Made by a program: the position numbers and the translations under genes | The notes under the pieces: generated by a model | Told to the model about the DNA's origin: nothing | What the model saw: only the letters and a program-made list of their open reading frames with translations | Databases searched by the model: none | Part shown: positions 815 to 18,690 of the stretch, piece by piece | How positions within the stretch are numbered: the first letter of the stretch is position 1 | Layout of the letters: every line of letters begins with the position of its first letter | Source of the DNA: Candidatus Bathyarchaeia archaeon | GTDB lineage: Archaea; Thermoproteota; Bathyarchaeia; Bathyarchaeales; Bathycorpusculaceae | NCBI GenBank assembly: GCA_049969855.1 | Contig: JBMFOB010000022.1 | Span: 1-20,743, forward strand | Direction of reading: 5' to 3' | DNA: 20,743 nt

Positions 815-838
815 AATCTTCTCCTTCACTAAAACATG

Positions 839-1282
839 TTAGCTTATGTGCATAAGTCTTTCGGCAACTTTCCTCCCAAACTCTCTACATTTTTCTAAAC
901 CATCATGGTCAGGCGTGTACTTAATTAAAAGCGGCGGTTCAGCAACTTCCATTTCAAACTTGTTCTTCAAAATTTCAAGAACCAAACGAGGAGCTTCGCC
1001 GCTCCAACCATAAGAACCAAAAGCAGCTCCAATTTTTCCTTTTAAAACTATTTTTTTAACAGCAGCCTCCTCCAAAAGATTTTTTATGTTTAAAGGCATG
1101 TCATGATGGTACGTTGGAACTCCAAACGCTAAAGCGTCAAAACTGGTTAAAGCTTCAACAGCCATATAATAAGCTGTTTCCACATTCACTCCTTGAACTG
1201 TTCTAGCGCCTTCAGCCACAGCCTTAGCCATCTTCTCAGTATTCCCAGTTCGACTATAATAAAGAACAAGAAACTTAGCCAT
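839..1282 (-). CDS. Flavodoxin domain protein (similar to the FprA C-terminal domain)
   Basis: FMN phosphate loop YYSRTGNTEKMA, plus GVPTY and AFGSYGWSGEA. ATG at 1282 follows GGTG; alternative start at 1297. Confidence 0.88.
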   Translation of the reverse strand: MAKFLVLYYSRTGNTEKMAKAVAEGARTVQGVNVETAYYMAVEALTSFDALAFGVPTYHHDMPLNIKNLLEEAAVKKIVLKGKIGAAFGSYGWSGEAPRLVLEILKNKFEMEVAEPPLLIKYTPDHDGLEKCREFGRKVAERLMHIS

Positions 1283-1319
1283 ATACACCACACCCATTCA
1301 TTAATAGTTGCATGCCTAA

Positions 1320-2018
1320 TTAGAGATTTTGGCTTGCCGCCTGCTTTATTTCTTTTTTGAATTTTTCTGTTTCCATAAAAAAAGTTTGTATTGGTTTAGC
1401 ATTAACTATGAGCCACCAGTTTTTGCGTTTCATTGATTCTTCGGGCTTTTGCCACTCGTTTATCATTTCAATTTTTATGTCGGGTAAAACTTCTCTAATA
1501 ATTTGTTCAATTCTTTTTGCAAATGAATAAGAAAACTGACATGCGGAGCCATAAAGGATTACTGCTTTGTTCTTGTCTTCTTCTAACGGTTCATATTCCA
1601 CTTTTGGAACGGGTTCATATGTGCCTTCGATTGGAAGGTATAGCATGCTTCCTTCTTTTGTTGGGAGGAACCCGTTTTTCTTGTAAAATTCTGGCATTGG
1701 AAGAAGCTCACCGGTGTTGAAAGCTTTGGCTAAGATGAATTTGCATGGTTTATTGCCGAGGCATGACTTCTTCATTTTAACATCTAAAATTACCTCTTGC
1801 AGCAGTTTTTTGCCTATACCAATTTTCTGCGCCTCTGATGTAGGATTGTAAATGCAGTTTATGACAAGAACTCCTTCCCGCCTAAACTCCTTGGCTACGT
1901 CAGCTTCTTCTGGATAATAGAGTATTTGGGCTACTGGTTTTCCATCGTAGTAAGCGATTTTTGCGCACGATCCATAACCGTTAAGCATTTCATGTAGCCA
2001 TTGTCTTTTCAGCGCCAT
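1320..2018 (-). CDS. GNAT-family N-acetyltransferase with YoaP-like C-terminal domain; probably 5'-frameshifted (native start likely 2082)
   Basis: INCIY...QKIGIGKKLL acetyl-CoA motif A and FYKKNGF motif B. C-terminal CQF...thioredoxin-like YoaP-type segment. An out-of-frame ATG with an RBS-like sequence lies at 2082. Confidence 0.7.
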   Translation of the reverse strand: MALKRQWLHEMLNGYGSCAKIAYYDGKPVAQILYYPEEADVAKEFRREGVLVINCIYNPTSEAQKIGIGKKLLQEVILDVKMKKSCLGNKPCKFILAKAFNTGELLPMPEFYKKNGFLPTKEGSMLYLPIEGTYEPVPKVEYEPLEEDKNKAVILYGSACQFSYSFAKRIEQIIREVLPDIKIEMINEWQKPEESMKRKNWWLIVNAKPIQTFFMETEKFKKEIKQAASQNL

Positions 2019-2094
2019 GCCCTGCTGATGGATTGGGTCGTTGAGCCTTTTGGAGATTTTCGATTCTCACTTTATCTTGCATTGAATTTTACCT

Positions 2095-2661
2095 TTAAGC
2101 CTTCTTGCCCATTTCCTTTATTATCTCATCCACAGTCATTATTTTTGCATTGTAAACATATTCTAAATATTTCAATCCTTGTTCATGGTCTTCTTGTGTG
2201 AATGATTCCACTCCGTCTTTTGCGATTATTATTTTGTATCCTCTGAAGAAGGCGTCTGCTGCCGTGTGCCTTACACATATGTGCGTGTGCAGTCCACCTA
2301 AAATGACTGTTTTGGCGCCTTCTCCGTTGTATAGGCTTCTAAGCAGCGGGTCCAAACCTGTCTCGTAGAAGCCGCTATATGTTCTTTTTTCGACGATGAA
2401 GTCCTCCTCTGTAGGCTTGAGTTCTGGAATGACTTCGGCTCCTTTTGTGCCTTTTATGGCGTGTTTTCCCCATTTTGCGACAACTTCAAAGTCTTCTGGA
2501 TAATGGGCATCGTTGCTGTAGATGACTGGGATGTTATGCTTGCGGGCGGCTTCTATTAGCTTTTTAAGATTTGGAATTATGTGTTTGGCTCTTTCGCATT
2601 TTAAATCTCCAGTGACAAAATCGTTCAGCATATCAATTATTATTACAGCCTTCCTACTCAA
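2095..2661 (-). CDS. Isochorismatase-family cysteine hydrolase (nicotinamidase-like)
   Basis: IIDMLNDF (catalytic Asp), DAH...WGKH (metal ligands), EKRTYSGF (Lys) and GLHTHICV (catalytic Cys). TTG start with GGTG RBS. Confidence 0.9.
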   Translation of the reverse strand: MSRKAVIIIDMLNDFVTGDLKCERAKHIIPNLKKLIEAARKHNIPVIYSNDAHYPEDFEVVAKWGKHAIKGTKGAEVIPELKPTEEDFIVEKRTYSGFYETGLDPLLRSLYNGEGAKTVILGGLHTHICVRHTAADAFFRGYKIIIAKDGVESFTQEDHEQGLKYLEYVYNAKIMTVDEIIKEMGKKA

Positions 2662-2716
2662 GGGCGAAAGACACCTTCAGCAATTTCGATTATGCCTTAC
2701 GTCATATTTAAGCTAT

Positions 2717-3790
2717 TTATCTTGCACTCTCTAAAGTGTAAAAGCCATCCGTGAATTTTTCAGCCTTTCCCTTCTTCACTAAAACCGTGTCCTCTATGCG
2801 GATGCCTCCGAAATCAATAAGGTATATGCCCGGCTCAATTGTTACCACATTTCCAATTGTTAATTTATCCTTGCTTTCCATGTTAAGCGTTGGCGGTTCA
2901 TGAATTTCTAAGCCTACACCGTGGCCTAATCCGTGGACGAAATATTCTCCATATCCAGCCTTTTCTATGACTTTTCTGGCGGTGTTGTCTATTTCTTTGG
3001 CTTTTGCCTTCGGCTTTACTGCTTGGAAGGCTTTTTCCTGAGCTTCTTTAACAACTTCATAAAGCTTAATTTGTTTATTTAAGGGTTTCCCAGCGACAAT
3101 GGTTCTTGTCATGTCAGAACGGTAATACTTGTAAGTGGCTCCTATATCAACAACAACCAAATCCCCTTCACGTATCTCTTTATCTGTGCATCCGCCGTGA
3201 GGAAAGGCTGAACGAACGCCGGAAGCCACTATGGTATCAAAGGCTGTTCCCCAAGACCCCCTTTTTCGCATGGCATGTTCAATTTCCGCAGCAGCCTCAT
3301 ACTCTTTTATGCCAGGCTTAATCACTTCATAAGCAGCTTTCATGCCTTCGCTTGTTAGTTTTCCAGCCTTCCGCATAAGTTCAAGCTCTTCTTCATCCTT
3401 CACCTTACGCAGTTCCCAGACAAGGTCTCCTCTAACCTTTAGCTTTGTTTCGCCGCGCAATTCTTTTGCGAGTTTGCGGTAGTTCTCAACGTTTAATGTG
3501 TCTATGGCTAACTTTTTTATTTTGAAAGCCTTAGTCTGCTTTGCAATTTTTGCCAACAAATTTTCGTTGCGTTTCACCAATTCAACAGTGAAACCTTTAA
3601 CTTCAGCTTTCGCCTGCTCATAATTAACATTGTAGACATATGCTTTGCCCTCACCAGATTTTGGTATCAACACGCATGCCAATCCAGGACAACTTGAAAA
3701 GTACAAAGTGTTAATTTCGTTTGTAATCAAAAACCCGTCAAACCCCTTTTGCTCAAAAGCCTTTTGTTTTAAAGCCTCTATCCTATTCAT
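2717..3790 (-). CDS. pepQ: Xaa-Pro aminopeptidase/prolidase (M24B)
   Basis: Creatinase-like N-domain, then PHG, VDIGA, SDMTRT, HGLGHGVGLEIHE, TIEPGIY and GIRIED metal-binding motifs. AGGTGA RBS at 3795-3800. Confidence 0.92.
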   Translation of the reverse strand: MNRIEALKQKAFEQKGFDGFLITNEINTLYFSSCPGLACVLIPKSGEGKAYVYNVNYEQAKAEVKGFTVELVKRNENLLAKIAKQTKAFKIKKLAIDTLNVENYRKLAKELRGETKLKVRGDLVWELRKVKDEEELELMRKAGKLTSEGMKAAYEVIKPGIKEYEAAAEIEHAMRKRGSWGTAFDTIVASGVRSAFPHGGCTDKEIREGDLVVVDIGATYKYYRSDMTRTIVAGKPLNKQIKLYEVVKEAQEKAFQAVKPKAKAKEIDNTARKVIEKAGYGEYFVHGLGHGVGLEIHEPPTLNMESKDKLTIGNVVTIEPGIYLIDFGGIRIEDTVLVKKGKAEKFTDGFYTLESAR

Positions 3791-3830
3791 TTTTTCACCT
3801 TCTAGAAAGCAATCATAAATGACTGTTTAG

Positions 3831-3846
3831 TTTAAAATCTTTTGCA
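3831..3846 (-). promoter_or_regulatory. Archaeal BRE/TATA promoter for pepQ
   Basis: The minus strand reads GCAAAAGA-TTTTAAA about 40 nt upstream of the pepQ ATG. Confidence 0.55.
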
Positions 3847-3866
3847 AAAAGAATTAAATTTCGGCG

Positions 3867-4157
3867 TTATCCACCGCTAACTATGGGAAGTAAAGCCACA
3901 TGGTCCCCGTTTTTAAGTTTTGTTTTGATTCCGTTTAACTGGTTGAGCAGATAACCGTTCACTGTGATTACGTAGTTTGTCTTTACATCCTTGCCTTTAG
4001 GTTCGTAAAGAGCCTTTTGAAAGGGTTCACCATATCTTTCAGAAAGCCTAACCAATAAGTCTGCTATGGAAGAGTCTTCGCTAATTTCAACTTCCTCTTC
4101 CCGACCACTTTTAATAATATTTCTTATATGACCGAAGTATTCAACCTTAACTTTCAA
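3867..4157 (-). CDS. moaD: MoaD/ThiS-family ubiquitin-like sulfur carrier (SAMP-like)
   Basis: MKVKVEYFG N-terminus, ITVNG, and LKNGDHVALLPIVSGG with a C-terminal di-glycine. 96 aa. Confidence 0.9.
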   Translation of the reverse strand: MKVKVEYFGHIRNIIKSGREEEVEISEDSSIADLLVRLSERYGEPFQKALYEPKGKDVKTNYVITVNGYLLNQLNGIKTKLKNGDHVALLPIVSGG

Positions 4158-4200
4158 GGCGAAACCCCAAAGGCTTCTATAATATCATGGCTCAAGTTCG

Positions 4201-4241
4201 TTATATAATTGTTTCACCCCTTTCTATCGCTAAATTAATAT
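4201..4241. promoter_or_regulatory. Divergent promoter region between moaD and the flavin reductase
   Basis: TTATATAA at 4201-4208, preceded on the minus strand by GAAACAA (BRE-like), fits moaD. TAAATTAATAT at 4231-4241 lies about 45 nt before ATG 4286. Confidence 0.5.
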
Positions 4242-4285
4242 TGATTACACCACTAATGTTTCATGCCTTTAGGAAGTTTGTGAAA

Positions 4286-4816
4286 ATGAAAGAGGAAGTT
4301 CCAGTTTCCGAAGGGTTAAGCCAGTTCCCAATTAGACCAGTTTATTTAGTTTCAACAGAGCATAAAGGCAAAAAGAACATTATAACCGTCGGCATGTTCG
4401 CCTTCTTCTCCGGAAAACCAACATTGGTTGGTGTGGGCATTGCTCCTACGAGATACTCATTTGAATTAATTCGCCAAAGTAAAGAGTACGTAGTTAACGC
4501 TGTTGACGAGAATCTTATTGAGGCTACGCGGATTTGTGGGGAAAAATCAGGGCGAGAAGTGGACAAATTTGAACTGGCGAAGCTTACTCCAGAAAAGGGA
4601 ACCAAAGTAAATGCGCCCCTCATCAAAGAGAGTCCCGTTAGCATTGAATGTAAGGTTGTTAAAGAAGTTGAAATCGGCGACCACGTTTGGTTTATAGGCG
4701 AAGTGCTCGCTGCTCATGTTCGCAAAGGATACAAGTGGAGTGAGGGTTTACTGTTTAAGTGGATAGGTGAAGACGGCTTCTTTTACAAAGTGGGAAAAGA
4801 AATAGGCAAATACTAA
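4286..4816 (+). CDS. Flavin reductase-like FMN-binding split-barrel protein (flavoredoxin/DIM6-NTAB family)
   Basis: PVYLVS, NIIT, RYSFELI, CGEKSGREVDKF, PLIKES..IEC and GDH.WFIGEV motifs. ATG 4286 is preferred because the longer ORF from 4187 crosses the divergent promoter. Confidence 0.88.
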   Translation: MKEEVPVSEGLSQFPIRPVYLVSTEHKGKKNIITVGMFAFFSGKPTLVGVGIAPTRYSFELIRQSKEYVVNAVDENLIEATRICGEKSGREVDKFELAKLTPEKGTKVNAPLIKESPVSIECKVVKEVEIGDHVWFIGEVLAAHVRKGYKWSEGLLFKWIGEDGFFYKVGKEIGKY

Positions 4817-4840
4817 ACGCATTTTACTGAGAGATAACGC

Positions 4841-5275
4841 TTGGATTTTGAATATCCCAAAAATGTTCGTTTCATATGCAAGAAATGTGCCATATGCTGC
4901 GGCGACACCAAGGAAAAGGTTAGGTTCATTCTTCTCTTAAAGAAAGAGGCTGAACGCATAGCAAAGAAAACTCTAAAAGATATTGAGGAGTTCGCTGAAA
5001 AAGTTGAAGACACACAGCTTTACGTTTACCAGATGAGAAAAACTGCTGAAGGAAAATGTGTATTCCTTAAAGACGGTTTATGCTCAATTTACCAGATAAG
5101 ACCGTTAATATGCAAATTCTATCCATTCCAACTTAACAATAAAAATGGCAGATTCGAATTCGCATACACAACTGAATGCCCAAACATTGGTAAAGGCCCA
5201 AAATTGAAAAAGAAGTTTTTTGAAAAGCTCCTTAGAGAATTCGTAAGAATTATGGAAGAGAACGCTTCTCATTGA
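4841..5275 (+). CDS. YkgJ/UPF0153 CxxCxxCC cysteine-cluster protein (putative Zn/Fe-S binding)
   Basis: [25 protein letters not shown] and a later CP. TTG start. Confidence 0.88.
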
Positions 5276-5321
5276 CAATTCTTTTATGTTTCTCAAACAG
5301 TCTAGTTTTAGGGTGTCTTCA

Positions 5322-7004
5322 ATGTTGTTTGACAAGCAGACGCTGGAGGAGATTCGTAAAAGGAAAAAGGAATGGGAGAAAGAAACTGTATCAAAGAGTT
5401 TGGAAAAGCTTCCGGAAAAAGCTGAATTCTCAACAAGTTCTGACATTCCCATAAATAGGGTTTACACGCCAGTTGACATTGAAAAGCTTGACTATTTAGA
5501 AGATTTAGGTTTTCCAGGGGAATATCCCTTCACCCGCGGCGTTTATCCAACAATGTACCGTGCTAGATTATGGACTATGAGGCAATATGCAGGCTTCGGA
5601 ACGGCTGAACAAACGAATCAACGCTTTAAATATCTGTTACAGCAGGGACAAAGGGGCTTAAGCGTGGCTTTTGACTTTCCAACACAAGTTGGTTATGACT
5701 GCGACCATCCCATGGCACGTGGCGAAGTTGGAAGGGCTGGCGTAAGTGTTAGCACTTTAAGGGATATGGAAATCGTCTTTGATGGAATTCCCTTAAAGGA
5801 AATCACGACCTCTATGACTATTAATGCTCCAGCAACAGTTTTGCTTGCCATGTATGTTGCTGTTGGACAAAAACAGGGTGCTGAACCATCTCAGTTGGGT
5901 GGAACAGTGCAGAATGACATTTTGAAGGAATATGCAGCCAGAGGCATGTACATTTTTCCACCTAAACCATCCATGAGGCTAGTAACAGACATATTCGAGT
6001 ACTGCTCTCAACACATGCCACAATGGAACACTATAAGCATAAGCGGCTACCACATTCGCGAGGCTGGAGCAACAGCCGTTCAAGAAGTAGCCTTCACATT
6101 AGCAAACGCCATCGCCTACGTGCAAGCAGCCATCGACAGAGGTTTAGATTTGGACAAATTCGCAGGCAGATTATCCTTCTTCTTTGCGTCCCACAACAAC
6201 TTCTTCGAAGAAATTGCCAAATTCAGAGCTGCAAGAAGGCTATGGGCTAAAATAATGCGGGAACGCTTCAAAGCAAAAAATCCAGCCTCATGGATGTTAC
6301 GTTTCCACACTCAAACTTCTGGGGTTTCCCTCACAGCCCAACAACCATACAACAATATTGTGAGGGTTGCTCTTCAAGCTTTGGCTGCTGTTTTAGGTGG
6401 AACCCAATCTTTGCATACAAACTCTTTTGATGAAGCTTATGCCTTGCCAAGCGAACAAGCCGTCACAGTAGCGCTTAGAACTCAACAGATAATAGCTTAC
6501 GAAAGCGGAGTAGCCGAAACCATAGACCCAATTGCAGGCTCATACTATGTGGAGTACTTGACAAGTCAGATAGAAGAGAAAGCAGCAAAATACATTGAAC
6601 AAATTGACGAAATGGGAGGAGCCGTTGCCGCCATCGAAAAGGGTTTCATGCAACGAGAAATTGTAGAAAGCGCCTACCGCTTTCAAAGAGAAGTGGAAGC
6701 AAAAAAGCGCATAATTGTTGGAGTAAACGAGTTTATAACAGAGGAAGAGGTACCGATAAAAATTTTGCAGATAGACCCTGAAATAGAGAAAAAGCTTGTA
6801 GAACGCCTAAAACAGATAAAACAGCAGAGAAACCAAACAAAAGTTAAAGAAATGCTAGACAAATTACGCTTGGCTGCTGAAAAAGAAAATGCGAATCTCA
6901 TGCCATTCATAATTCAAGCAGTAAAAGAATACGCCACCATAGGAGAAATCTGCGACACCTTGCGGGAGGTTTTCGGAGAATATAAGCCACCTTCCATCTT
7001 CTAA
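5322..7004 (+). CDS. mcmA: Methylmalonyl-CoA mutase, large (substrate-binding) subunit
   Basis: [55 protein letters not shown] and GGTQSLHTN. No DxHxxG B12-binding domain. ATG 5322 follows a GGGTG RBS; the ORF track starts at 5286. Confidence 0.95.
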
Positions 7005-7555
7005 ACAATAATAAATAGGGCTTCGCCTTCGCTTACCGAAGAACCCTCAGAAACAAGTATTTCCTGAACTGTGCCGCTTTTAGGAGCTGCAACTTCATTT
7101 TCCATTTTCATGGCTTCCAGAATACAAAGAACCTGTCCGGCTTTCACCTGTTCTCCCTTTTTGACTTTTATGGAAAGAATTTTTCCAGTCATGGGCGCAG
7201 CCACAGCACCTTCCACTGCTGGCTTGGGTTCCGCTGGTCTTTTTGCAGGCGCTACTGTAGTGGGTTCAAAAGTTGCTAATGCAAGTTTTCTCATTGACGT
7301 TTTTACTTCCGCCTTGAAAACTGCTTCTTCAACTTTAACCGAAAAAGGCTCTTCCCTCTTGAGTTCTGGCAAATTTACCTGATACTTTTTGCCATCGATA
7401 TTTATGAAGAAACCTTTTTCTAATTCAAGCTTTTCAGTTTCTAACTCCACTTTTAAAGGCTTTCCGTCCACTTTGACTTCGAAAGTGTTCTCTCCAGTTT
7501 TTGTCAACTCGATTTTTCGTGGTTTGCCGTCAATAAAAACTTCGTAAACTGGCAT
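7001..7555 (-). CDS. Biotin carboxyl carrier protein (transcarboxylase 1.3S/MmdC-like) with extended N-terminus
   Basis: APMTGKI...[11 protein letters not shown] biotinylation motif, a Pro/Ala linker and N-terminal repeated xDGK hairpins. ATG 7555 lies 1 nt after the upstream stop. Confidence 0.92.
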
Positions 7556-7556
7556 T

Positions 7557-9101
7557 TTACACACCATATTCTGCTAAGCTTTTTCGTCCAGTCAAAACCC
7601 AAGCAGACATTGTGCCCCTTGCTCGTAGAGGTATTAGTGCTTTGGTTTTTCCCAAACTTTTAATGTAGGCGGCAACAGCCACAGAAACTGCGGCAACATC
7701 CTCCAGTTCTGCGATTTTGTCAGGTGAAATTTCAGTTTTGGCTTCTTCTTTTTTGGCTTTTCTTTTTTTAAAGAATTCTAAGGCCACTTGTGGAAAAAGC
7801 GCATATGTTATCTTATCCTCTTCACTTTCAATGTATGGTTTTACTTCTTCAGGTATTTTGTCAAGGGCGCTTTCTAATAGGTCTGCTGGACGGCAAGTTA
7901 TTGGTTCCTCATCGCCTATTATCTTCTTTTTAACCTTAGGATTGATGGGGGCTGGCGGTTTTCCATACAAGCCCTTCACATAATCTTTTATCTCTTTTGG
8001 CACTATGCTGTAGCGTTTACCAGAAATAACATTAAAAACGGCTTGAATACCCACAAGCTGACTTGTAGGCGTTACTAATGGAGGATAACCCAACTCTTTT
8101 CTAACCCTCGGAACCTCTTCAAGAACCTCCTTAAGCCTATCAAGCGCTTTTTGTTCCCTCAATTGCTCGAGAAGGTTGGAGAACATTCCGCCTGGAATTT
8201 GATGTACAATAATGGATGGATCAACCTGTTCAGCTTTTTTGTCTATAAGCTTTAATGGGTCATAATATTTCTCTCGCAGTTCTCTGAAGTAAGATGCAAT
8301 TTCGCTTAAAAGTTCCAAATCAAGTCCAGGATCGTATGGCGTTCCTTTTAAGGCGGCTACTATCGATTCTACTGGCGGCTGCGATGTACCCCAAGCAAAA
8401 GGTGAAAAGGCCGTGTCAATTATGTCCACTCCAGCTTCACATGCTCGAAGATATGTCATCATAACCATGCCGCTTGTGCTGTGACTGTGCAAGTGTACGG
8501 GTAGGCTTATCTCCTCTTTTAGCACTGTTATAAGCTCATAAGCTGGTTGTGGCGCAAGCATTCCAGCCATGTCTTTTATGCATATGGAATCACAATCAAG
8601 TTCAGCCAATTCTTTGGCAACTTTAACATAGTACTTTATTGTGTGGACTGGGCTTATAGTGTAGCATATTGTTCCCTGCGCATGCTTGCCAACTTTTTTA
8701 ATAGTTTTTATTGCCACTTCCATGTTTCTTACATCGTTTAAAGCATCAAAAACTCGAAAGATGTCTATGCCATTTTCAGCCGCCTTCTCAACAAATTTTA
8801 TGAGAACATCGTCTGGATAATTGCGATAGCCAACAATATTTTGTCCCCGCAAAAGCATCTGAAGCGGCGTCCTTTTTATGTGGCGCTTTAGCTGGCGTAT
8901 TCTCTCCCAAGGGTCTTCGCCTAAATAGCGTATGCAAACGTCGAATGTGGCTCCTCCCCACATTTCCAAAGAGAAAAAGCCCACTTGGTCGATTTTTTCT
9001 GCTATGGGAAGCATGGCGTCAGTGCGCATTCTCGTAGCCATCAAAGACTGATGAGCGTCTCTAAATGTGGTGTCGGTGATTTTAACTGGTTTCGAAGCCA
9101 T
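7557..9101 (-). CDS. Pyruvate/oxaloacetate carboxyltransferase (transcarboxylase 5S / PycB / OadA-like), without a biotinyl domain
   Basis: RDAHQS, WGGATFD, QMLLRG, CIKDMAG (carbamylated Lys), HLHSH, HQIPGGM and PPLVTPTSQ. No EAMKM in this polypeptide. Confidence 0.92.
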   Translation of the reverse strand: MASKPVKITDTTFRDAHQSLMATRMRTDAMLPIAEKIDQVGFFSLEMWGGATFDVCIRYLGEDPWERIRQLKRHIKRTPLQMLLRGQNIVGYRNYPDDVLIKFVEKAAENGIDIFRVFDALNDVRNMEVAIKTIKKVGKHAQGTICYTISPVHTIKYYVKVAKELAELDCDSICIKDMAGMLAPQPAYELITVLKEEISLPVHLHSHSTSGMVMMTYLRACEAGVDIIDTAFSPFAWGTSQPPVESIVAALKGTPYDPGLDLELLSEIASYFRELREKYYDPLKLIDKKAEQVDPSIIVHQIPGGMFSNLLEQLREQKALDRLKEVLEEVPRVRKELGYPPLVTPTSQLVGIQAVFNVISGKRYSIVPKEIKDYVKGLYGKPPAPINPKVKKKIIGDEEPITCRPADLLESALDKIPEEVKPYIESEEDKITYALFPQVALEFFKKRKAKKEEAKTEISPDKIAELEDVAAVSVAVAAYIKSLGKTKALIPLRARGTMSAWVLTGRKSLAEYGV

Positions 9102-9159
9102 AAATTGCTTAGCCCCTCTAGTATTTTTAGAGTTTGAAAATGGTCAAGCAACTATTAAT

Positions 9160-10728
9160 CTATAATGGTATGTTTCCGTGTTTTCTGGATGGTCTAGGCT
9201 CGCGTTTTGTGATTAGGCTTTCTAAGGCGCTGATAAGTTTTGGTCTTGTTTCTGCTGGTTCGATTACTTCGTCTATGTAGCCTTTCTGGGCTGCAACGTA
9301 TGGGTTTGCAAATTTTTGGCGATACTCGCTTACAAGTTCCATTCGCTTTTGTTCTGGATTTTCTGCTTCGGCTATTTCCTTTCTGAATATTATGTTTATG
9401 GCGCCTTGAGGTCCCATCACGGCTATTTCGGCTGTTGGCCAAGCATAGTTTATGTCTGCGCCTGAATGTTTAGAGCCCATGACGTCGTATGCTCCGCCAT
9501 AGGATTTGCGTAATATGGTGGTGATTTTTGGCACTGTTGCTTCGCAATAAGCGTATAAAAGTTTTGAACCATGCTTTATTATGCCGCCGTGCTCTTGCTC
9601 AAGACCGGGCAAGAAGCCTGGCACGTCTACGAATGTTATTATTGGAATGTTGAAGCAGTCGCAGAAACGTATGAATCGTCCTGCTTTCATGCTGCTGTTT
9701 ATGTCTAGGGCTCCAGCATAATGCAATGGTTGATTCGCCACTATGCCAACCGTCTTGCCATTTAACCTTGCAAAGCCTATAACAATGTTCTGCGCCCACA
9801 AGGGCTGAATTTCAAAGAACTCGCCATTATCAACCACACGAGTAATAATCTCCTTAACATCATAAGGTTTGTCTGGATCGTCTGGAAGAATCCTCGCCAA
9901 ATCTTCATCAGTGCGGTCTGGGTTATCTGTGGACTCTACTGCTGGCGGGTCTTCAAGATAATTGCTTGGCAGATAACTCAAAAGTTTCTTTATAATTTGA
10001 ATGCAATGCTCTTCGTTTTGGGCTATGAAATGGGCTACGCCGCTGGTTGTGCTATGCACCATAGCGCCGCCTAATTCTTCAAAAGTAACCTCTTGTCCCA
10101 AAGCAGCTTTAACCACGTCTGGACCAGTGATAAACATGTGACTTGTCTTGTCAACCATGATTATGAAGTCGGTTAGTGCAGGCGAATAGACGGCTCCGCC
10201 AGCGCATGGTCCCATTATAGCGCTTATCTGTGGAATTACGCCTGAGCTTATGACGTTTCTGAAGAAAATGTCCCCATAACCAGCAAGGCTTGCCACACCT
10301 TCTTGTATGCGCGCTCCGCCACTGTCATTTAAGCCTATGACTGGCGCTCCAGCTTTTAGGGCTAAATCCATTATCTTGCAAACCTTTTTTGCAAACATCT
10401 CACCCAACGAACCGCCAAAAACAGTGAAGTCTTGGCTGAAAACGTAAACGAGTCTGCCGTCTATTGTGCCATAACCCGTAACAACGCCATCGCCAAGATA
10501 TTTGCGTTCTGCCATGCCAAATTCTGTGCACTGATGAACCACAAAACGGTCAAGCTCATTGAAACTGCCTGGATCAAGCAACAATTCAATGCGCTCTCGA
10601 GCTGTCAATTTACCCTTAGCATGTTGTTCCTCAATGCGCTTTTGTCCACCGCCAAGTTTTGCTTGCTCATTTAATTCCCGTAAACGCTTAACCTTCTCAT
10701 CAACACTAGGCTCTTTTGTAAAGACCAT
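9160..10728 (-). CDS. Acyl-CoA carboxyltransferase (methylmalonyl-CoA carboxyltransferase 12S / MmdA / PccB-like)
   Basis: [54 protein letters not shown] and C-terminal RKHGNIPL. Confidence 0.95.
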
Positions 10729-10791
10729 CGCTAATACCTCTTGCTTTTAGGTATGGCATCTCGGATATTTAGAATATACGGAAAAGGAAAC

Positions 10792-11589
10792 CTAAGTTTT
10801 CCATTCATTTATTTTAAGAGAAATATCTCCAACAAAAAAACGTTTCACTGTTCCATCTTCAAGCCTAACAACCAATGCTCCCTTATTATTAACGTCTAAA
10901 GCTAAGCCACAGAATCTTTCCGTTTCACCAGCGACTTCCACTGTTTTACCAAGAAAATCTGCATACTTTTTCCATTCCTTCAGAACCCAAGTGAAACCTT
11001 CTTTCAAAAACTTTTCATAAAGACTATCCAACTTTTCAAGCAACAATTTAAGCAGTTCTTCCAGCTTAACTTTTTTGCCCAACTCGCTTTCAAGTGATGT
11101 TGCAACAGTCTTCAGCTCTTCTGGAAACTCTTTTTTAACATTAACATTTGCGTTTATGCCTACGCCTATTATTACATAGTTAACTTTTCCACCTTTTGTC
11201 CTCATCTCGCTTAGTATTCCGCAAACCTTTCGACCGTTCACCAAAACATCGTTTGGCCACTTAGTCTCCGCATGCAATCCATATTTTTCATGCAAAACCT
11301 CTACAACTGCTAAGCCAGCCACAAATATGAGACCAACAGATTCTTTTACGGTGACTTTTGGCCTTAAAATAACGGAAAAATAGAGTCCGCCTTTTGACGA
11401 AAACCATTGTCTATCAAGTCTTCCTCGTCCAGCGGTTTGAGTTTCTGCTATGACAATGGTTCCTTCAGAAGCCCCGTAATTAGCCATTTCCTTAGCTAAG
11501 TCGTTTGTGGAACCAACCTCATGTAAGAACAGTATTTTTTTGCCAAGCTTTTTGGTTTGAAGGTTTTCTTGAATCTTATCTATTTTCAA
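10792..11589 (-). CDS. birA: Biotin-protein ligase (class I, no N-terminal HTH)
   Basis: STND, QTAGRGR, KWPND, KVCGIL and GIGIN motifs, with a C-terminal SH3-like domain. TTG start after GAGTGA. Confidence 0.95.
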   Translation of the reverse strand: MKIDKIQENLQTKKLGKKILFLHEVGSTNDLAKEMANYGASEGTIVIAETQTAGRGRLDRQWFSSKGGLYFSVILRPKVTVKESVGLIFVAGLAVVEVLHEKYGLHAETKWPNDVLVNGRKVCGILSEMRTKGGKVNYVIIGVGINANVNVKKEFPEELKTVATSLESELGKKVKLEELLKLLLEKLDSLYEKFLKEGFTWVLKEWKKYADFLGKTVEVAGETERFCGLALDVNNKGALVVRLEDGTVKRFFVGDISLKINEWKT

Positions 11590-11596
11590 CTATAAT

Positions 11597-11740
11597 TCAC
11601 TCTTCAAGAATGATATATGAAGGTATGTAAAAAACTATGTATGTTGAAGCGGCCAATAGAAACGGAATAACAAAACCTAAAGCTGCAATGAGAAAGCCGG
11701 ATAAAGCCAAACTTGGTTTGCCAACATGCAAGCTAAACAT
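11597..11740 (-). CDS. Possible 47-aa hydrophobic membrane peptide or gene remnant
   Basis: Hand translation: MFSLHVGKPSLALSGFLIAALGFVIPFLLAASTYIVFYIPSYIILEE. It is co-oriented between mce and birA, and its stop overlaps the birA RBS. No clear RBS of its own. Confidence 0.3.
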   Translation of the reverse strand: MFSLHVGKPSLALSGFLIAALGFVIPFLLAASTYIVFYIPSYIILEE

Positions 11741-11838
11741 TAACAAGCCCTGTTTACAGCCCCTATTGAGCCTTCCTTTGATTCAAACCATCACTTTCTA
11801 CCAAAACGTGTTTAGAATGGTTGCTTTTTAAATCCGAA

Positions 11839-12240
11839 TTACCTCATAACAAGCTCCAGAAGAACGCCTTTTGTGCTTTTTGGGTGAACAAAGGCAATTT
11901 TTGCGCCTTCAGCGCCAGCTCTAGGCTTATCGTCAACCAAAACCACGCCTTTACGCTTAAAATCCTCAAGCACAGCGTTAATGTTTTCAACTTTTACAGC
12001 GATATGGTGGATGCCTTCGCCTCGATTTTCAAGAAACTTTGCAACTGGACTGTCGCTGCCTAAGGGCTCTAAAAGCTCAATTCGGGTTTCGCCACCGCTG
12101 GAGAGAAAAGCAACTTTAACCTTCCTCTCACTTAAAACATGGATACCCTCAAGCTTAAAACCCAAAACATTCTTGTAAATGCCAATTGCCTCATCCAAAT
12201 TTTTTACAGCAACACCAACATGGTCAATACCTGTAAGCAT
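11839..12240 (-). CDS. mce: Methylmalonyl-CoA epimerase (VOC family)
   Basis: [25 protein letters not shown] and [17 protein letters not shown] 12240 follows GAGGTGA. Confidence 0.95.
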
Positions 12241-12286
12241 ACATGCTTCACCTCTCACAGAGTTTTAAATGCCATGTTAAACACAT

Positions 12287-12370
12287 TATAAAAAGTTTCT
12301 AAATATTTTGAATGAGAACTTGCTGTAAACTAAGATTTTCATAGCCGAATAGTGTTAGAAAACTATAAAG
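12287..12370. promoter_or_regulatory. Divergent BRE/TATA promoters for mce (-) and sdhA (+)
   Basis: Minus strand AGAAAC-TTTTTATA at about 12287-12300. Plus strand AGAAAA-CTATAAAG at 12357-12370. Each is about 35-50 nt from its start codon. Confidence 0.6.
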
Positions 12371-12405
12371 GGTAGGTCGCAAAATTTAGGTTCTCTCTAA
12401 AATGG

Positions 12406-14115
12406 GTGAACATGTTGGAGAAATATGTCCACGACATAATTATTATTGGAGCTGGCTTGGCTGGTCTTAGGGCTGCAATTGCAGCGGCTGAAGTTAGCAA
12501 CAAACTTGACATAGCCGTAATATCAAAACTTCATCCACTCCGCTCACATTCTGTCTGTGCTCAAGGCGGAACGGCTGCAGTAATGCGGGAAAAAGATTCT
12601 TATGATTTGCATGCTTTCGACACCATTAAAGGCGCTGATTATTTAGCCGACCAAGATATTGTTGAATTTTTTGTGAGACGAGCACCAAGAGAGATAGTTT
12701 TAACAGAACATTGGGGATGCCCATGGAGCCGCACATCCGATGGAAAAATAGACCAACGCCCTTTTGGAGGCCACACTTATCCGAGGGCTTGTTTTGCGGC
12801 GGACATGACTGGTTTTCATGAAATGCACACATTGTATGGAAAAGCCTCCTCATATGACAACATTAAATTTTATGATGAATGGTTCGCCACATCTCTAATG
12901 GTTGAAGACAAAACAGCAGTTGGCTTAACAGCTATAGAATTGAAAACTGGCAAGATACATGCCTTCCAAGCAAAAGCCATTGTGATTGCAACTGGAGGTC
13001 ACGAGCGCATATACGAATTCACAACTTTCTCTTACACAACCACTGGTGATGGGATGGCTATGGCTTACCGTGCTGGGGCTCCATTAATGGATATGGAATT
13101 TGTCCAATTTCACCCCACTGGTTTAGTACCATCTGGCGCATTAATAACTGAAGGAGCCCGAGGTGAAGGCGGATACTTAATTAACGCTCAAGGCGAACGT
13201 TTCATGAAACGTTACGCTCCAGAAAAAATGGAGTTAGCCCCCAGAGATGTGGTTTCAAGGGCTGAACAAACAGAAATTAACGAAGGCCGAGGACTGGAAG
13301 GACCTTATGGGTCTTACATAGCATTAGACCTGAGGCATTTAGGTGAGGAAAAAATAAACGAGAGATTGCCGCTTATTCGGGAAGTTGCCATAAAACTTAG
13401 CGGAGTAGACCCCGTCAAAGAGCCTATTCCAATAAGGCCGGCAGCCCACTATTCCATGGGTGGAATAAAGGCTAACATAAAAACTGAAACGCCAATTAAA
13501 GGGTTATACGCTGCTGGTGAATGCTCCTGTCTAAGCCTTCATGGAGCAAATAGGCTTGGCACAAACTCAACAGCAGAATGCCTTGTTTTTGGAGCAGTTG
13601 CTGGAGAAGAGGCTGCTAAACATGCCTTATCAAACAGCATAAAAGAACTATCCCATGAAAAAGTTCTAGCAGAGGAAAAGAGGGTTTTTGATGGAATTTT
13701 GGGCAGCGAAGGCGGCGAAAGGGTTTCAGTTATAAGAGATGAGATGAGGCGTATAATGAAAGAGAAAGTTTGGATATTCAGAAGAGGCGACCAACTTGAA
13801 AGCGCCTTGAAAGAGATAAGGGCGCTCAAAGAAAGGTTCAGACACATAAAGGTGCAAGACAAGGGCGGTCCGTTCAATACTGGTTTGGTGGATGCTTTGC
13901 AGCTTGACTTCATGCTGGAGCTTGCAGAAGTCACCATAGTGAGTGCACTTCCAAGGACCGAGTCCCGTGGAGCCCACTCAAGAATTGACTATCCGAAACG
14001 GGATGATGTAAACTGGTTAAAGCATACGCTGGCATACTACACAAAGGAAGGCCCAAGGCTTGAGTACATTCCTGTAACGATAACTAAGTGGCAGCCAGCA
14101 GCGAGAACGTATTAG
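12406..14115 (+). CDS. sdhA: Succinate dehydrogenase/fumarate reductase flavoprotein subunit
   Basis: [16 protein letters not shown] (covalent-FAD His), [41 protein letters not shown] and ESRGAH. The exact start could be 12406, 12412 or 12415. Confidence 0.95.
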
Positions 14116-14127
14116 GAGGTTGAATGC

Positions 14128-15693
14128 ATGAACTCTAAAGTGGAGAAAATTGTTGAGTTTAGGATAAACCGTTTTGACCCTCAAAATAAAAGGCATTATG
14201 TATCCACGTATAAGGTGCCGATTCGTAAGGGAACAAGCATCCTTGAAGCCCTCCAGTATATTAGGGATAATCTTGATGAGACGCTTTCTTTTAGGCATTC
14301 TTGTAGGATGGGCATCTGCGGAAGCTGCGGAATTAACGTTAACGGGCAACCCATGCTGGCATGTTATACTCAAGTTCTTGACCTTGGAGTTGACACGTTA
14401 GAGTTGGCGCCTTTATCCAACATGCCAGTAATAAAAGACTTAATAGTTGACATTGAACCCTTCTTTGACACTTTTAAGAAAATTAAAAAGTTTCTAATAA
14501 AACCCGAAGCGGAACTTAACAAGCTTGTAGAATTCGTGCAGAATCCTTTAGACTTGAAGAAATATTGGGACCTTACGCTTTGCACGAAATGTTCAATTTG
14601 TTATTCCGCTTGTCCAGCAGCAATAGACCAGAAGTTCCTCGGGCCATCAACATTAACTGCTAACTATCGCTTCATAGCTGATTCTAGGGATGAAGGGTTG
14701 GATGAACGATTAAAGCCGATGGCAGACAACATCTGGCTTTGCACTTCATGCAATTCATGTACGCTGTTCTGTCCAAAACTTGTTAACTGTTCAAACGCCG
14801 TAATTGACGACCGCAGCCTCCTAGTTGAGTCTGGAGTTATACCGAGAACTGTTAAAGACGTTTTGGAAAGCGTAATCAAATATCATAACCCTATGGGAAC
14901 CCATCAAAGCAAGAGAATGGACTGGAGTAAAGGCTTTAATATCAAGACGTTTCCTGATGTGGCGAAGGCTGATGTTTTGTTTTTTGTTTGCTGTTCAACA
15001 GCCTATGATATGAGAAATCAGGAAATGGCTGAAGCAATGGCTTCAATATTGGATAAAATGGGCATTAACTATGCAACTTTAGGCTCTGAAGAATGGTGCT
15101 GCGGAGACCACATTCTCAGATTAGGCGAGAAGGGATTATTCGAAGAGCTTGCTGAACACAACATTGAATTGTTCAAAAAGTTCAATGCAGAAAAAATTGT
15201 GGTCCTATCGCCTCACTGCTATAATACTTTCAAGAACGATAAGCCCTATAAGGATGCGGGACTTAACGTTCAACATTACACGCAGTTTTTGGCTGAAGCC
15301 ATCGAAAAAGGCAAACTGAAAACTTCTAAAACCATAAAGAAAAAAGTCACATACCACGACCCATGCTTCCTCGGAAAACGCAACAACATATACGATGCAC
15401 CCAGACAAATCTTGCAGTCTATAAACGGCTTAGAACTTGTGGAAATGAAAAGGACAAGACAAAACAGCTTCTGCTGCGGCGGAGGCGCCGGAAGAGTTTG
15501 GACTGAAGAGGCAGTCCCAGAAAAGAGACCAAGCGTGGAAAGGCTTAAAGAAGCATTGGCATTAGACGTTGAAGTCATAGCTACGGCTTGCCCATTCTGC
15601 GTGACAACGTTAGAAGATGCCGTGAAAGTTTTGGATGTGGAAGGCAAGATAGTGGTGAAAGACATATTAGAACTCTTGAAAGATGCTGTGTAA
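14128..15693 (+). CDS. SdhB/FrdB iron-sulfur subunit fused to two CCG (HdrD/GlpC-like) domains; TfrB-like architecture
   Basis: [2Fe-2S] SCRMGICGSC...AC, then CTKCSICYSACP and CTSCNSCTLFCP. CCG domains: FVCC...WCCG...SPHC and YHDPC...FCCGGG...ACPFC. GGAGG RBS. Confidence 0.9.
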   Translation: MNSKVEKIVEFRINRFDPQNKRHYVSTYKVPIRKGTSILEALQYIRDNLDETLSFRHSCRMGICGSCGINVNGQPMLACYTQVLDLGVDTLELAPLSNMPVIKDLIVDIEPFFDTFKKIKKFLIKPEAELNKLVEFVQNPLDLKKYWDLTLCTKCSICYSACPAAIDQKFLGPSTLTANYRFIADSRDEGLDERLKPMADNIWLCTSCNSCTLFCPKLVNCSNAVIDDRSLLVESGVIPRTVKDVLESVIKYHNPMGTHQSKRMDWSKGFNIKTFPDVAKADVLFFVCCSTAYDMRNQEMAEAMASILDKMGINYATLGSEEWCCGDHILRLGEKGLFEELAEHNIELFKKFNAEKIVVLSPHCYNTFKNDKPYKDAGLNVQHYTQFLAEAIEKGKLKTSKTIKKKVTYHDPCFLGKRNNIYDAPRQILQSINGLELVEMKRTRQNSFCCGGGAGRVWTEEAVPEKRPSVERLKEALALDVEVIATACPFCVTTLEDAVKVLDVEGKIVVKDILELLKDAV

Positions 15694-18685: not shown

Positions 18686-18690
18686 TCATT

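Follow-up and report, generated by a model that had tools for sequence, protein, structure and literature searches.

A four-gene operon in a Bathyarchaeia genome probably encodes an ATP-independent methylmalonyl-CoA:pyruvate transcarboxylase, in which a 5S-type carboxyltransferase would replace biotin carboxylase (BC) on a 12S core. The window analysed here (20,743 nt) is the entire contig C22 of a 1.28 Mb MAG of an uncultured archaeon, with 93% completeness and 3.8% contamination. A preliminary description of this DNA had reported four adjacent, co-oriented genes, for BirA, an acyl-CoA carboxyltransferase, a pyruvate carboxyltransferase lacking a biotinyl domain, and a biotin carrier, and had read them as a transcarboxylase working without ATP. 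All four ORFs were recovered on the minus strand between 7001 and 11589, and the analysis supports that interpretation, as an activity predicted from the genes; most of the checks proposed with it turned out favourably.

The operon and its neighbours

Gene identities were assigned by Pfam and NCBIfam profile searches, with PDB chains as solved homologs. The matches of the four genes are full-length, with E-values down to 1e-211, and thus the pattern is not due to chance. The birA gene (10792..11589, minus strand) encodes a 265 aa biotin-protein ligase which matches PF03099 (BPL_LplA_LipB) at 86 bits, PF02237 (BPL_C) at 28 bits and TIGR00121 at 225 bits (cut-off 83), and which has no N-terminal repressor domain. 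The 12S-type acyl-CoA carboxyltransferase (PccB/MmdA-like; 522 aa; 9160..10728, minus strand) matches Carboxyl_trans (PF01039) at 702 bits over profile positions 2-493 of 493 and is the genome's only Carboxyl_trans gene. The 5S-type pyruvate/oxaloacetate carboxyltransferase (514 aa; 7557..9101, minus strand) carries PF00682 (HMGL-like) and PF02436 (PYC_OADA) and is likewise the genome's sole PYC_OADA gene; Pfam found no Biotin_lipoyl domain in it. The free-standing biotin carboxyl carrier BCCP1 (188 aa; 7001..7567, minus strand; PF00364 Biotin_lipoyl, 81 bits) consists of an N-terminal domain of ~95 residues, a linker, and the biotinyl domain. Its biotin attachment site, which we take from family knowledge to be K154 (codon 7106..7108, minus strand), lies in the AMKM of the motif EAMKMENE, and the genome encodes no biotinyl protein besides BCCP1; its second Biotin_lipoyl match is a lipoyl E2. 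The end of the 5S gene and the start of the carrier gene share 11 nt, and the remaining intergenic gaps are 58 and 63 nt.

The cluster is flanked by methylmalonyl-CoA mutase, epimerase, and fumarate reductase genes. The mutase large subunit (572 aa; 5286..7004, plus strand; PF01642 at 788 bits, TIGR00641 at 844 bits) is convergent with the BCCP1 gene, and the epimerase (139 aa; 11839..12258, minus strand; TIGR03081 at 166.7 bits, cut-off 115) lies upstream of birA in the same orientation. Beyond the epimerase is a TfrAB-like fumarate reductase/succinate dehydrogenase (12406..15693, plus strand; NF004724 at 892 bits, cut-off 826; PF13085 and PF02754), made up of a flavoprotein (12406-14115) and a fused Fe-S and CCG subunit (14128-15693). 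The TfrB model NF004898 scores 323.5 on it, under its cut-off of 385, and no membrane anchor was seen with these genes in the window. A [NiFe] hydrogenase is also encoded near the fumarate reductase and transcarboxylase genes.

The preliminary description had likened the operon to the transcarboxylase of Propionibacterium freudenreichii (shermanii) (12S/5S/1.3S, EC 2.1.3.1), and the resemblance holds for the subunit set: both systems have two carboxyltransferases and one free carrier, with neither BC nor a membrane subunit. The three Bathyarchaeia subunits match 1on3 (12S), 1rqb (5S), and 1dcz (1.3S) at 620, 473, and 57 bits, and motifs around the 5S active site are aligned. It does not extend to close orthology of either carboxyltransferase, as PCC beta (1vrg, 762 bits) scores higher for the 12S-type, and PycB (5ks8, 570 bits) and OadA (2nx9, 536 bits) score higher for the 5S-type; BCCP1 matches MMD gamma (2d5d) at 64.5 bits. 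The 1.3S subunit is ~123 aa long, in contrast to the 188 aa of BCCP1 with its N-terminal domain. Also unlike P. freudenreichii, the Bathyarchaeia 5S-type bears a C-terminal tail, and birA lies within the operon.

A transcarboxylase of other specificity, acting on malonyl-CoA/acetyl-CoA or on a different 2-oxoacid pair, would suit the 12S-type's score under the mmdA subfamily cut-off (TIGR01117, 873 vs 998.8 bits) and its closest matches among solved structures, which are generic beta subunits of acyl-CoA carboxylases; archaeal members of this carboxyltransferase family can moreover be promiscuous. We consider it rather unlikely nonetheless, given that the operon sits between the methylmalonyl-CoA epimerase and mutase genes both here and, among 16 mapped clusters of relatives (L086-L101), wherever a cluster reaches both, and that the 5S-type retains motifs common to pyruvate/oxaloacetate enzymes (RDAHQS at 14-19, KDMAG at 176-180, and HLHSH at 203-207), which align with all three solved homologs.

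The 5S-type subunit and its C-terminal tail

Automated naming of the 5S-type gene would be misleading, as the preliminary description had anticipated. The protein passes the cut-off of NF008985, "oxaloacetate decarboxylase subunit alpha" (745.8 vs 718), and falls under that of the transcarboxylase 5S equivalog NF008984 (572 vs 827). In a carboxyltransferase-domain tree, the Bathyarchaeia 5S clade groups with fused PycB proteins encoded beside BC in methanogens and Clostridia (SH-aLRT 95), apart from the other 12S-linked clade, and joining the two 12S-linked 5S clades was rejected by an AU test (p 0.0015, with groups named after the tree was built). The nearest relatives outside Bathyarchaeia are Methanosarcinales PycB proteins (60-62% identity). 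The PycB of the two-subunit PycA/PycB enzymes of methanogens and bacteria is also the top solved match and falls into the same part of the tree. The tree comparison proposed earlier counts against a transcarboxylase. PycB differs in carrying its biotinyl domain as a fusion, next to a PycA gene, and in being tailless (21 of 100 5S-like frames); the Bathyarchaeia 5S-type has a separate carrier, no PycA, and a 12S neighbour.

The tail of ~60 residues (residues 450-514; 7560..7754, minus strand) carries the motif ELEDVAAVSVAVAAY ... SAWVLTGRK, and we found it shared between 5S-type and BC proteins over ~45-60 residues. This is a new observation; PycA/PycB and OadA do not have the tail. Its W and R are invariant in the tail alignment A2 (20/20). 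Among the 100 5S-like frames it is present in 35, including 27 of the 32 that lie near a 12S gene with no fused carrier or OadB neighbour, and in 0/21 BC-adjacent fused PycB and 0/13 OadB-adjacent frames. Within the Bathyarchaeia order it ends all six in-cluster BCs and 7/8 other BCs, and it was found on 0/21 PycA-type BCs. Searching 10,135 frames with a profile of BC tails only retrieves 22 5S-like proteins (best E 1.4e-13), and the tail profile has no match in 1rqb or any other PDB chain. Of five further genomes whose 5S bears the tail, four yielded no BC match. Because BC and the 5S-type end in the same tail, we infer that the 5S takes the position of BC, most likely on the 12S core.

That the two carboxyltransferases are instead decarboxylases, 5S with BCCP1 acting on oxaloacetate or 12S with BCCP1 on methylmalonyl-CoA, relying on an unrecognised partner or on spontaneous loss of CO2 from carboxybiotin, is quite unlikely. 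The NF008985 match would fit, and against OAD_gamma and ACC_epsilon the tail gives sub-threshold matches only, among them weak C-terminal-part matches to OAD_gamma for three tails from the order (E 0.0015-0.12); two family relatives (G005 and G031) also own a true OadA-OadB pair. However, no OAD_beta gene was found in the genome or in four congeners, and the OadB-linked paralogs are only 56-58% identical, lack the tail, and form a branch of their own. To our knowledge, the known decarboxylases require a beta subunit to decarboxylate carboxybiotin.

Absence of BC and reduction of the cluster

The preliminary description had noted that the window holds neither BC nor MmdB/OadB, and indeed none of its ORFs has a BC or OAD_beta domain. 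Extending the search as it had suggested, we found no match to the BC profile PF02785 in the whole genome (control matched in 13/14 genomes), and no OadB. The only PF02786 match (25.8 bits) is a 360-aa RimK/PylC-like ATP-grasp protein. All five genomes of the genus (87-93% complete) carry both carboxyltransferases, with BC and OadB not found in any of them. In a survey of 61 genomes of the order, all 30 with the 12S also carry the 5S; BC was found in 14 of these 30 and not found in 16. Fifteen of those 16 are also without OadB, seven of the 15 being at least 90% complete and at most 5% contaminated. Strict co-occurrence of BC with these subunits, named beforehand as an argument against a transcarboxylase, is thus partly seen in relatives, where all 15 BC-bearing genomes of the 61 have the 5S-type gene, and is not seen in the genus.

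Gene order is conserved in the clusters of relatives, as the synteny check proposed earlier shows. In six of them (G012, G023, G029, G033, G036, and G042) the cluster includes a BC-BCCP2 pair, with a 12S 86-94% identical to the one studied here. Between the epimerase and fumarate reductase genes our genome has an empty slot of 147 nt (12259..12405) in contiguous assembly; the slot holds BC-BCCP2 in G012, G033, and G042 and an AMP-forming acetate/propionate-CoA ligase in G001 and G004, and is empty also in G000 and G002. No BC remnant was found in it by tblastn. An intact MFS gene (PF07690) lies between the epimerase gene and birA in congeners; here a ~170-nt remnant of its 3' end is left (11615..11782, minus strand), aligned by tblastn over 50 aa at 72% identity with residues 318-367 of the 372-aa G001 protein. 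The cluster is a reduced form of one that has the BC-BCCP2 pair in relatives. The archaeal-type three-subunit acyl-CoA carboxylase (BC, BCCP, CT) of family relatives has the same 12S gene and a tailed BC, whereas BC and BCCP2 are missing from the genome and genus studied here. BC persists beside these genes in roughly half of the related genomes, so the core may have its evolutionary origin in ATP-dependent carboxylases.

Could the genes still belong to ordinary ATP-dependent propionyl-CoA and pyruvate carboxylases, with BC missing from an incomplete MAG? The 93% completeness leaves some room for this, and a BC bearing the 5S-like tail is present in 14 of the 30 order genomes with both carboxyltransferases. 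It is nevertheless decidedly unlikely, as BC is found in none of the five genus genomes or the seven high-quality genomes above, the slot is contiguous and empty, and a relative's BC as tblastn query matched nothing in the genome at E<=1e-3, not even a fragment. It is highly unlikely that the operon is a decaying relic, non-working after the loss of BC-BCCP2: the cluster is visibly reduced, with its MFS remnant and no CoA ligase in the slot, but all four ORFs are intact, birA is retained for a single biotin protein, and the four genes are under strong purifying selection, with dN/dS among four BC-less congeners of 0.016-0.035 (12S), 0.054-0.068 (5S), 0.10-0.22 (BCCP), and 0.15-0.22 (BirA) at dS 0.3-0.85 (0.28-1.0 over the six genes compared).

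Related systems and proposed role in propionate metabolism

The review PMC8892533 describes a transcarboxylase of syntrophic propionate oxidisers that carboxylates propionyl-CoA ATP-free; in the mmc cluster of Pelotomaculum thermopropionicum, the genes for transcarboxylase 5S, an MMD-alpha-like 12S, a gamma carrier, epimerase, mutase, and succinate dehydrogenase lie together. That cluster, which we compare from its description only, is bacterial and has a separate epsilon subunit (mmcI), whereas here an epsilon-like peptide appears to be fused to the 5S. The preliminary description knew of no biochemical characterisation in archaea; a similar genomic inference is already in print: according to Imachi et al. 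2020 (PMC7015854), Asgard propionate metabolism was deduced from genomes as transcarboxylase-linked, with a methylmalonyl-CoA decarboxylase-like protein, a carrier, a pyruvate carboxylase-like protein, and a "transcarboxylase-associated biotin ligase". At two Thorarchaeota loci (L033 and L040) a tailed 5S precedes a carrier, as in Bathyarchaeia, and their two genomes gave no BC match; the Thorarchaeota 5S differs in belonging to the other 12S-linked clade.

In the transcarboxylase that we favour, BirA would biotinylate K154 of BCCP1 as the single carrier of the predicted complex, the 12S-type would move CO2 between (S)-methylmalonyl-CoA/propionyl-CoA and biotin, and the 5S-type would move it between carboxybiotin and pyruvate/oxaloacetate. 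Biotin would be charged without an ATP-grasp subunit and discharged without a membrane beta subunit. The enzyme would join the epimerase, B12 mutase, and fumarate reductase with succinyl-CoA synthetase (on contig C2), fumarase (C7), malate dehydrogenase (C30), and pyruvate:ferredoxin oxidoreductases (four POR_N genes). With the mutase B12 subunit, MeaB, and CobA on C19, the gene set of the methylmalonyl-CoA pathway between propionyl-CoA and pyruvate is complete. The direction of flux is ambiguous. The TfrAB-like fumarate reductase and nearby [NiFe] hydrogenase would suit propionate formation, while the BC or AMP-forming CoA ligase that fills the slot in relatives, together with the MFS transporter, would suit propionyl-CoA consumption; we lean towards the latter for a reaction that is reversible. 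If the transcarboxylase reading is true, this archaeon would pass CO2 between methylmalonyl-CoA and pyruvate at no ATP cost.

The four-gene cluster and the absence of biotin carboxylase and OadB

The four minus-strand ORFs that the preliminary description had placed at 7001-11589 were recovered at exactly these coordinates, and Pfam and NCBIfam searches bore out the domain make-up claimed for them, i.e., a carboxyltransferase without a biotinyl domain, a separate carrier, and birA. Along the minus strand, birA (10792-11589, 265 aa) is followed by a 12S-type acyl-CoA carboxyltransferase (9160-10728, 522 aa; PF01039 Carboxyl_trans at 702 bits, with the whole profile covered), a 5S-type pyruvate/oxaloacetate carboxyltransferase (7557-9101, 514 aa; TIM-barrel HMGL-like PF00682 and PYC_OADA PF02436, with biotinyl PF00364 absent), and a free biotin carrier, BCCP1 (7001-7567, 188 aa; PF00364 Biotin_lipoyl at 81 bits). 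The start of BCCP1 is overlapped by 11 nt by the 5S stop. BCCP1 has an EAMKMENE motif (AMKM) with K154, and the 5S-type protein, when aligned with solved PycB, OadA, and transcarboxylase 5S, retains the RDAHQS, KDMAG, and HLHSH motifs, which we take to be metal and substrate ligands.

The preliminary description had found neither a biotin carboxylase (BC) nor an MmdB/OadB membrane subunit in the window. HMM searches (Biotin_carb_C 0 matches, OAD_beta 0 matches) and tblastn extended both absences genome-wide, in a MAG of 1.28 Mb and 49 contigs that is 93.2% complete and 3.8% contaminated and of which the window is one entire contig (C22). The Biotin_carb_C profile (PF02785) was silent here, with the control positive in 13 of 14 genomes, and the sole match to CPSase_L_D2 (PF02786), at 25.8 bits, was a 360-aa ATP-grasp protein that is not a BC. 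OAD_beta (PF03977) had no match in this MAG or in four congeners, and tblastn of the MAG with a relative's BC and OadB gave no match at E<=1e-3. The gene for this ATP-grasp protein, on contig C8, was considered as a cryptic BC and rejected, its domains being ATP-grasp_3, PylC-like_N, and RimK, without Biotin_carb_N or Biotin_carb_C. Carboxyl_trans and PYC_OADA genes each occur once in the MAG, and there is a single biotinyl protein (a second Biotin_lipoyl match is a lipoyl E2); birA is retained for this one client.

We surveyed 61 genomes of the order, including this one, which are kin rather than independent samples. PYC_OADA matched 32 of them, Carboxyl_trans 30, Biotin_carb_C 15, and OAD_beta 2. 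A 5S accompanied the 12S in all 30 genomes that have a 12S; among the BC-bearing genomes, 5S was present in 15/15 and 12S in 14/15. Of the 30 genomes with 12S and 5S together, 14 have a BC and 16 lack one. OadB is missing as well from 15 of the 16, and 7 of these 15 reach a completeness of 90% or more with contamination of 5% or less. Within the genus, both carboxyltransferases were found in all five genomes, BC and OadB in none. The five closest loci among GTDB species genomes, one of which has the same sequence as a contig from a genome of the same family, all come from Bathyarchaeia/Bathyarchaeota MAGs, with 79-86% identity in the 5S-type protein.

The cluster lies among genes for methylmalonyl-CoA metabolism. 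A methylmalonyl-CoA epimerase gene, epi (11839-12258, minus strand), is upstream of birA on the same strand, and the gene for the methylmalonyl-CoA mutase large subunit (5286-7004) is convergent with BCCP1. Divergent from epi is a TfrAB-like fumarate reductase (12406-15693, plus strand), in which a flavoprotein is followed by a 521-aa subunit, a fusion of an SdhB-type Fe-S domain with two CCG (HdrB-like) domains, and behind which the window has no gene for a membrane anchor. On contig C19 (22000-26406, locus L132), the MAG encodes the B12-binding small subunit of the mutase, MeaB, and a CobA adenosyltransferase, and elsewhere it encodes succinyl-CoA synthetase (C2), class I fumarase (C7), malate dehydrogenase (C30), four POR-type 2-oxoacid oxidoreductases, and an AMP-forming acetate-CoA ligase (C10). 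Taken together, the window and the rest of the genome encode a complete methylmalonyl-CoA pathway between propionyl-CoA and pyruvate.

Several further genes were observed along the way. Downstream of the fumarate reductase, at 15765-20741, are an aldehyde:ferredoxin oxidoreductase and a 4Fe-4S protein (ferredoxin) on the plus strand and, on the minus strand, a HycI-type maturation protease, a [NiFe] hydrogenase large subunit (484 aa), and a frame with a weak small-subunit (Oxidored_q6) match that runs off the contig end. A second mutase-like large subunit, cut by the contig end and with 65% identity across its last 117 aa, precedes the B12 subunit in L132. Two B12-binding proteins of 223-237 aa, the size of methyltransferase corrinoid proteins, are matched on contig C11 (27372-27713 and 37800-38141) and occur in the congeners too. 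At 3867-4157 on the minus strand, beside an M24 peptidase gene, the window encodes a 96-aa ThiS/MoaD-like (ubiquitin-fold) protein; 7 of 11 relatives' loci containing the M24 gene have an ORF of 96-100 aa at this position.

Comparison with known biotin-dependent enzymes

The arrangement is that of transcarboxylase (EC 2.1.3.1), a classical enzyme: a 12S-type protein, a 5S-type protein without a biotinyl domain, and a free AMKM carrier, with BC absent. An acyl-CoA carboxylase (BC, BCCP, and carboxyltransferase) differs in having BC encoded with the carboxyltransferase, whereas this MAG has no BC. In PycA/PycB pyruvate carboxylase, the biotinyl domain is fused to PycB and PycA is the partner; here, the carrier is a separate ORF. 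A Na+-translocating oxaloacetate or methylmalonyl-CoA decarboxylase requires the membrane beta subunit (PF03977) that the MAG and its four congeners lack. With one biotin protein, no BC, and no beta subunit, only one known chemistry closes the biotin cycle, namely transfer between two carboxyltransferase sites. The best reading, inferred entirely from sequence and in our judgment probable, is that the cluster encodes an ATP-independent methylmalonyl-CoA:pyruvate transcarboxylase, as had been proposed from the gene arrangement; the reaction would be methylmalonyl-CoA + pyruvate <-> propionyl-CoA + oxaloacetate.

The individual subunits were compared with those of Propionibacterium freudenreichii through PDB and NCBIfam scores only. 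Against the PDB, the 5S-type protein scores 570 bits with PycB (5ks8), 536 with OadA (2nx9), and 473 with the P. shermanii 5S (1rqb, residues 4-465). It falls short of the NCBIfam equivalog cut-off for transcarboxylase 5S (NF008984, 572 vs 827) and of the cut-off of NF010644 (681 vs 734), compared for two-subunit pyruvate carboxylase. In contrast, it exceeds the cut-off of NF008985, "oxaloacetate decarboxylase subunit alpha" (745.8 vs 718), so the expectation that automated naming would mislead was correct. The 12S-type protein scores 762 bits with the Thermotoga maritima PCC beta subunit and 620 with the P. shermanii 12S (1on3), and at 873 it is below the cut-off of the mmdA model TIGR01117 (998.8).

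Trees of the carboxyltransferase domain were built with FastTree from 99 rows (one truncated row was dropped) and with IQ-TREE (LG+G4, quick) from 55 hand-picked rows, and their deep branches are weakly resolved. The 5S proteins of the order form one clade (support 99), all unfused, with a 12S gene within about 3.6 kb in all loci that extend far enough. This clade falls on the side of the BC-adjacent fused PycB of Methanosarcinales, Methanotrichaceae, and Clostridia (SH-aLRT 95). Opposite it is a second clade of unfused, 12S-linked proteins, whose members come from Chloroflexota, Acidobacteriota, Thorarchaeota, and another Bathyarchaeota MAG. Placing the 5S of the window in one clade with the 12S-linked 5S of Thorarchaeota/Chloroflexota was rejected by the AU test (delta lnL 48, p 0.0015), for groups that were named after the tree was seen.

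Two family relatives have a separate carrier-OadA-OadB operon (L104 of genome G031, 2741-6524; L105 of G005, 375-3840), with an OadB of 380-382 aa that matches PF03977 at 470 bits in G031 and 464 bits in G005. The operon encodes a true Na+-pump-type oxaloacetate decarboxylase. Its OadA is a separate paralog, 56-58% identical to the 5S-type protein of the window, and does not have the C-terminal tail described next.

A C-terminal tail on 5S-type proteins and biotin carboxylases

The 12S-linked 5S-like proteins are about 505-535 aa long, vs about 450-480 aa for unfused OadA types. The difference is a conserved tail of about 60 extra residues comprising an Ala-rich segment, "AA(V/I)(S/A)AxxA", and the motif "(S/T)xW(K/V)xxxR", whose W and R are invariant in all 20 aligned tails. 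A profile of the tail matched 35 of 100 5S-like frames, 20 of which had been used to build it. When these frames were classed by gene context, the tail was found in 7/7 frames having a 12S with BC nearby, 1/1 with BC adjacent, and 19/24 unfused frames with a 12S, as well as 8/23 unfused frames without a 12S within 3 kb. The same profile search found no tail on BC-adjacent fused PycB (0/21), OadB-adjacent (0/13), or other fused proteins (0/7), nor on those with a 12S plus OadB (0/3) or a 12S plus a fused carrier (0/1).

The tail also occurs on BC. The profile matched all six in-cluster BCs of relatives (E 1e-5 to 3e-10) and otherwise only the 5S among their ORFs, and it matched 7 of 8 BCs situated elsewhere in genomes of the order. 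Among 24 BCs in 80 public loci, 3 matched (two Bathyarchaeia loci and one Chloroflexia locus, each with a tailed 5S); none of the 21 PycA-type BCs did. Against 1.84 billion representative proteins, the profile gave 32 matches at E<=1e-3, most of them by eye C-terminal fragments of 5S-like proteins and five of them the end of a biotin carboxylase followed by the tail. The reverse search, with a profile from 14 BC tails alone against 10,135 frames, retrieved 22 5S-like proteins, the best at E 1.4e-13, along with 9 BCs and a single frame of another kind.

That other frame is in locus L085, from a Thermodesulfobiota MAG, at 2339-2551 on the plus strand. It is an open frame of 71 residues (68 aa from the first Met) directly downstream of the 12S; the 5S of this locus has no tail, and the tail motif is present as a stand-alone ORF, which by its sequence looks like a free epsilon-like subunit. 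Further stand-alone tail matches of 74 and 82 aa (P0028 and P0029) were seen in the representative library.

Known families were approached below threshold. OAD_gamma (PF04277) gave 13.5-19.7 bits on 3 of 10 5S tails (threshold 27), and ACC_epsilon (PF13822) gave 13-18 bits (threshold 25) on two of the ten 5S tails and four of the six BC tails, in each case at profile positions of about 9-52. NCBIfam returned only sub-threshold oadG_fam on ten tails (E 0.02 and 0.28), and the tail profile against all PDB chains gave only noise (E>=0.45). A complex prediction for the 12S and the 5S tail (alignments A3 and A2), run without controls, scored 0.27 and 0.14 against a mark of 0.32 and weighs neither way as to binding.

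Outside the order, a 12S-5S(tail)-carrier operon was observed in an Anaerolineaceae locus (L036, 1-7270), followed by mutase and epimerase, and also in an uncultured bacterium (L042), Anaerolineales, and another Bathyarchaeota MAG (loci L042, L056, and L062). Methanomassiliicoccaceae (L025) have birA-12S-5S, and Thorarchaeota (L033 and L040) have 5S-carrier. A search for BC in five other genomes with a tailed 5S gave no match in four (two Thorarchaeota, one Bathyarchaeota, and one Anaerolineaceae, of no stated completeness), so the architecture is probably widespread.

The BC-BCCP2 cassette and a possible exchange of heads on a 12S core

Six relatives in the order (G012, G023, G029, G033, G036, and G042) have a BC (498-520 aa) and a second carrier, BCCP2, in the same cluster. 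This second carrier shares the two-domain build of BCCP1, with 30-35% identity to it. The genes of G029, G036, and G042 run BC-BCCP2-epi-(MFS)-birA-12S-5S-BCCP1 toward the mutase; the clusters of G012 and G023 have extra genes inserted, and the contig of G033 stops partway through its cluster. In G012, G033, and G042, the BC-BCCP2 pair is flanked by the fumarate reductase gene on one side and epi on the other. The 5S and the 12S of G012 are also separated by an insertion on the opposite strand, a gene for a 735-aa CHASE4-PAS histidine kinase (L088, 8921-11128, plus strand).

In the congeners G001 and G004, the same slot is occupied by a CoA ligase gene of the AMP-forming acetate/propionate type, and a gene for an MFS transporter lies between epi and birA. 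In the window (147 nt, 12259-12405) and in the congener G002, the slot between epi and the fumarate reductase is empty. The position that a BC would occupy is thus assembled and empty in the window. At 11615-11782 on the minus strand is a 3' remnant, about 170 nt long, of the MFS transporter gene, with 72% identity over 50 aa to the intact 372-aa gene of G001/G004, which shows that a deletion occurred recently in the lineage of the window. With its slot empty and its transporter gene reduced to a remnant, the cluster of the window is a reduced derivative. Pairwise dN/dS among four BC-less genomes of the genus (the MAG of the window, G001, G002, and G004; dS 0.28-1.0) was 0.016-0.035 for the 12S, 0.054-0.068 for the 5S, 0.05-0.065 for the mutase, 0.10-0.22 for BCCP1, and 0.15-0.22 for BirA, indicating strong purifying selection without BC.

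The pairing of 12S and 5S (30/30), the optional BC, and a tail common to BC and 5S and absent from PycA/PycB and OadA make 5S and BC resemble two alternative heads for a partner that they share. We take that partner to be the 12S core, given the stand-alone tail behind a 12S gene and the epsilon subunits of actinobacterial carboxylases, which bind the carboxyltransferase subunit; the N-terminal domain of the carriers would be an alternative partner. We tentatively propose, at somewhat less than even odds, that BC and 5S may be interchangeable heads docking on a 12S core through a homologous epsilon-like tail, that lineages may switch between them or run both by gain or loss of the BC-BCCP2 cassette at a fixed slot, and that this transcarboxylase may have arisen independently of that of Propionibacterium, from a PycB-like ancestor. 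As to direction, BC, or an AMP-forming ligase and transporter, in the slot of relatives would argue for propionyl-CoA consumption as the older role of the cluster; the soluble TfrAB-like reductase and the hydrogenase would fit the formation of propionate as well.

Similar clusters occur in bacterial syntrophs (review PMC8892533), and Imachi et al. 2020 (PMC7015854) inferred propionate metabolism in Asgard archaea, along with a carrier and a ligase associated with transcarboxylase. Our literature search, with most subscription journals and supplements outside its reach, found no description of the system under Bathyarchaeia with transcarboxylase, carboxyltransferase, or propionyl-CoA. Within the same reach, it found no biochemically characterized archaeal transcarboxylase, in agreement with an earlier remark to that effect, and the literature yielded no known docking tail on an archaeal BC. 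As far as we have seen, then, three things are new: the clean presence or absence of a BC-BCCP2 cassette in clusters that are otherwise the same, the PycB-side ancestry of the 5S of the order, and the tail common to BC and 5S.

If the proposed exchange of heads is true, lineages would alternate between a carboxylase driven by ATP and a transcarboxylase that needs none, or use both on one core. The tail on BC and 5S offers a concrete hypothesis for module swapping among biotin enzymes, and genomes whose clusters differ only in having or lacking the cassette form a natural series for comparison. Bathyarchaeia, which live close to the energetic limit, rank among the most abundant uncultured archaea of hot springs and anoxic sediments. 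ATP-free propionyl-CoA carboxylation or oxaloacetate synthesis would alter the ATP balance of their metabolism of propionate and amino acids and would place them alongside bacterial syntrophs as potential propionate consumers or producers.
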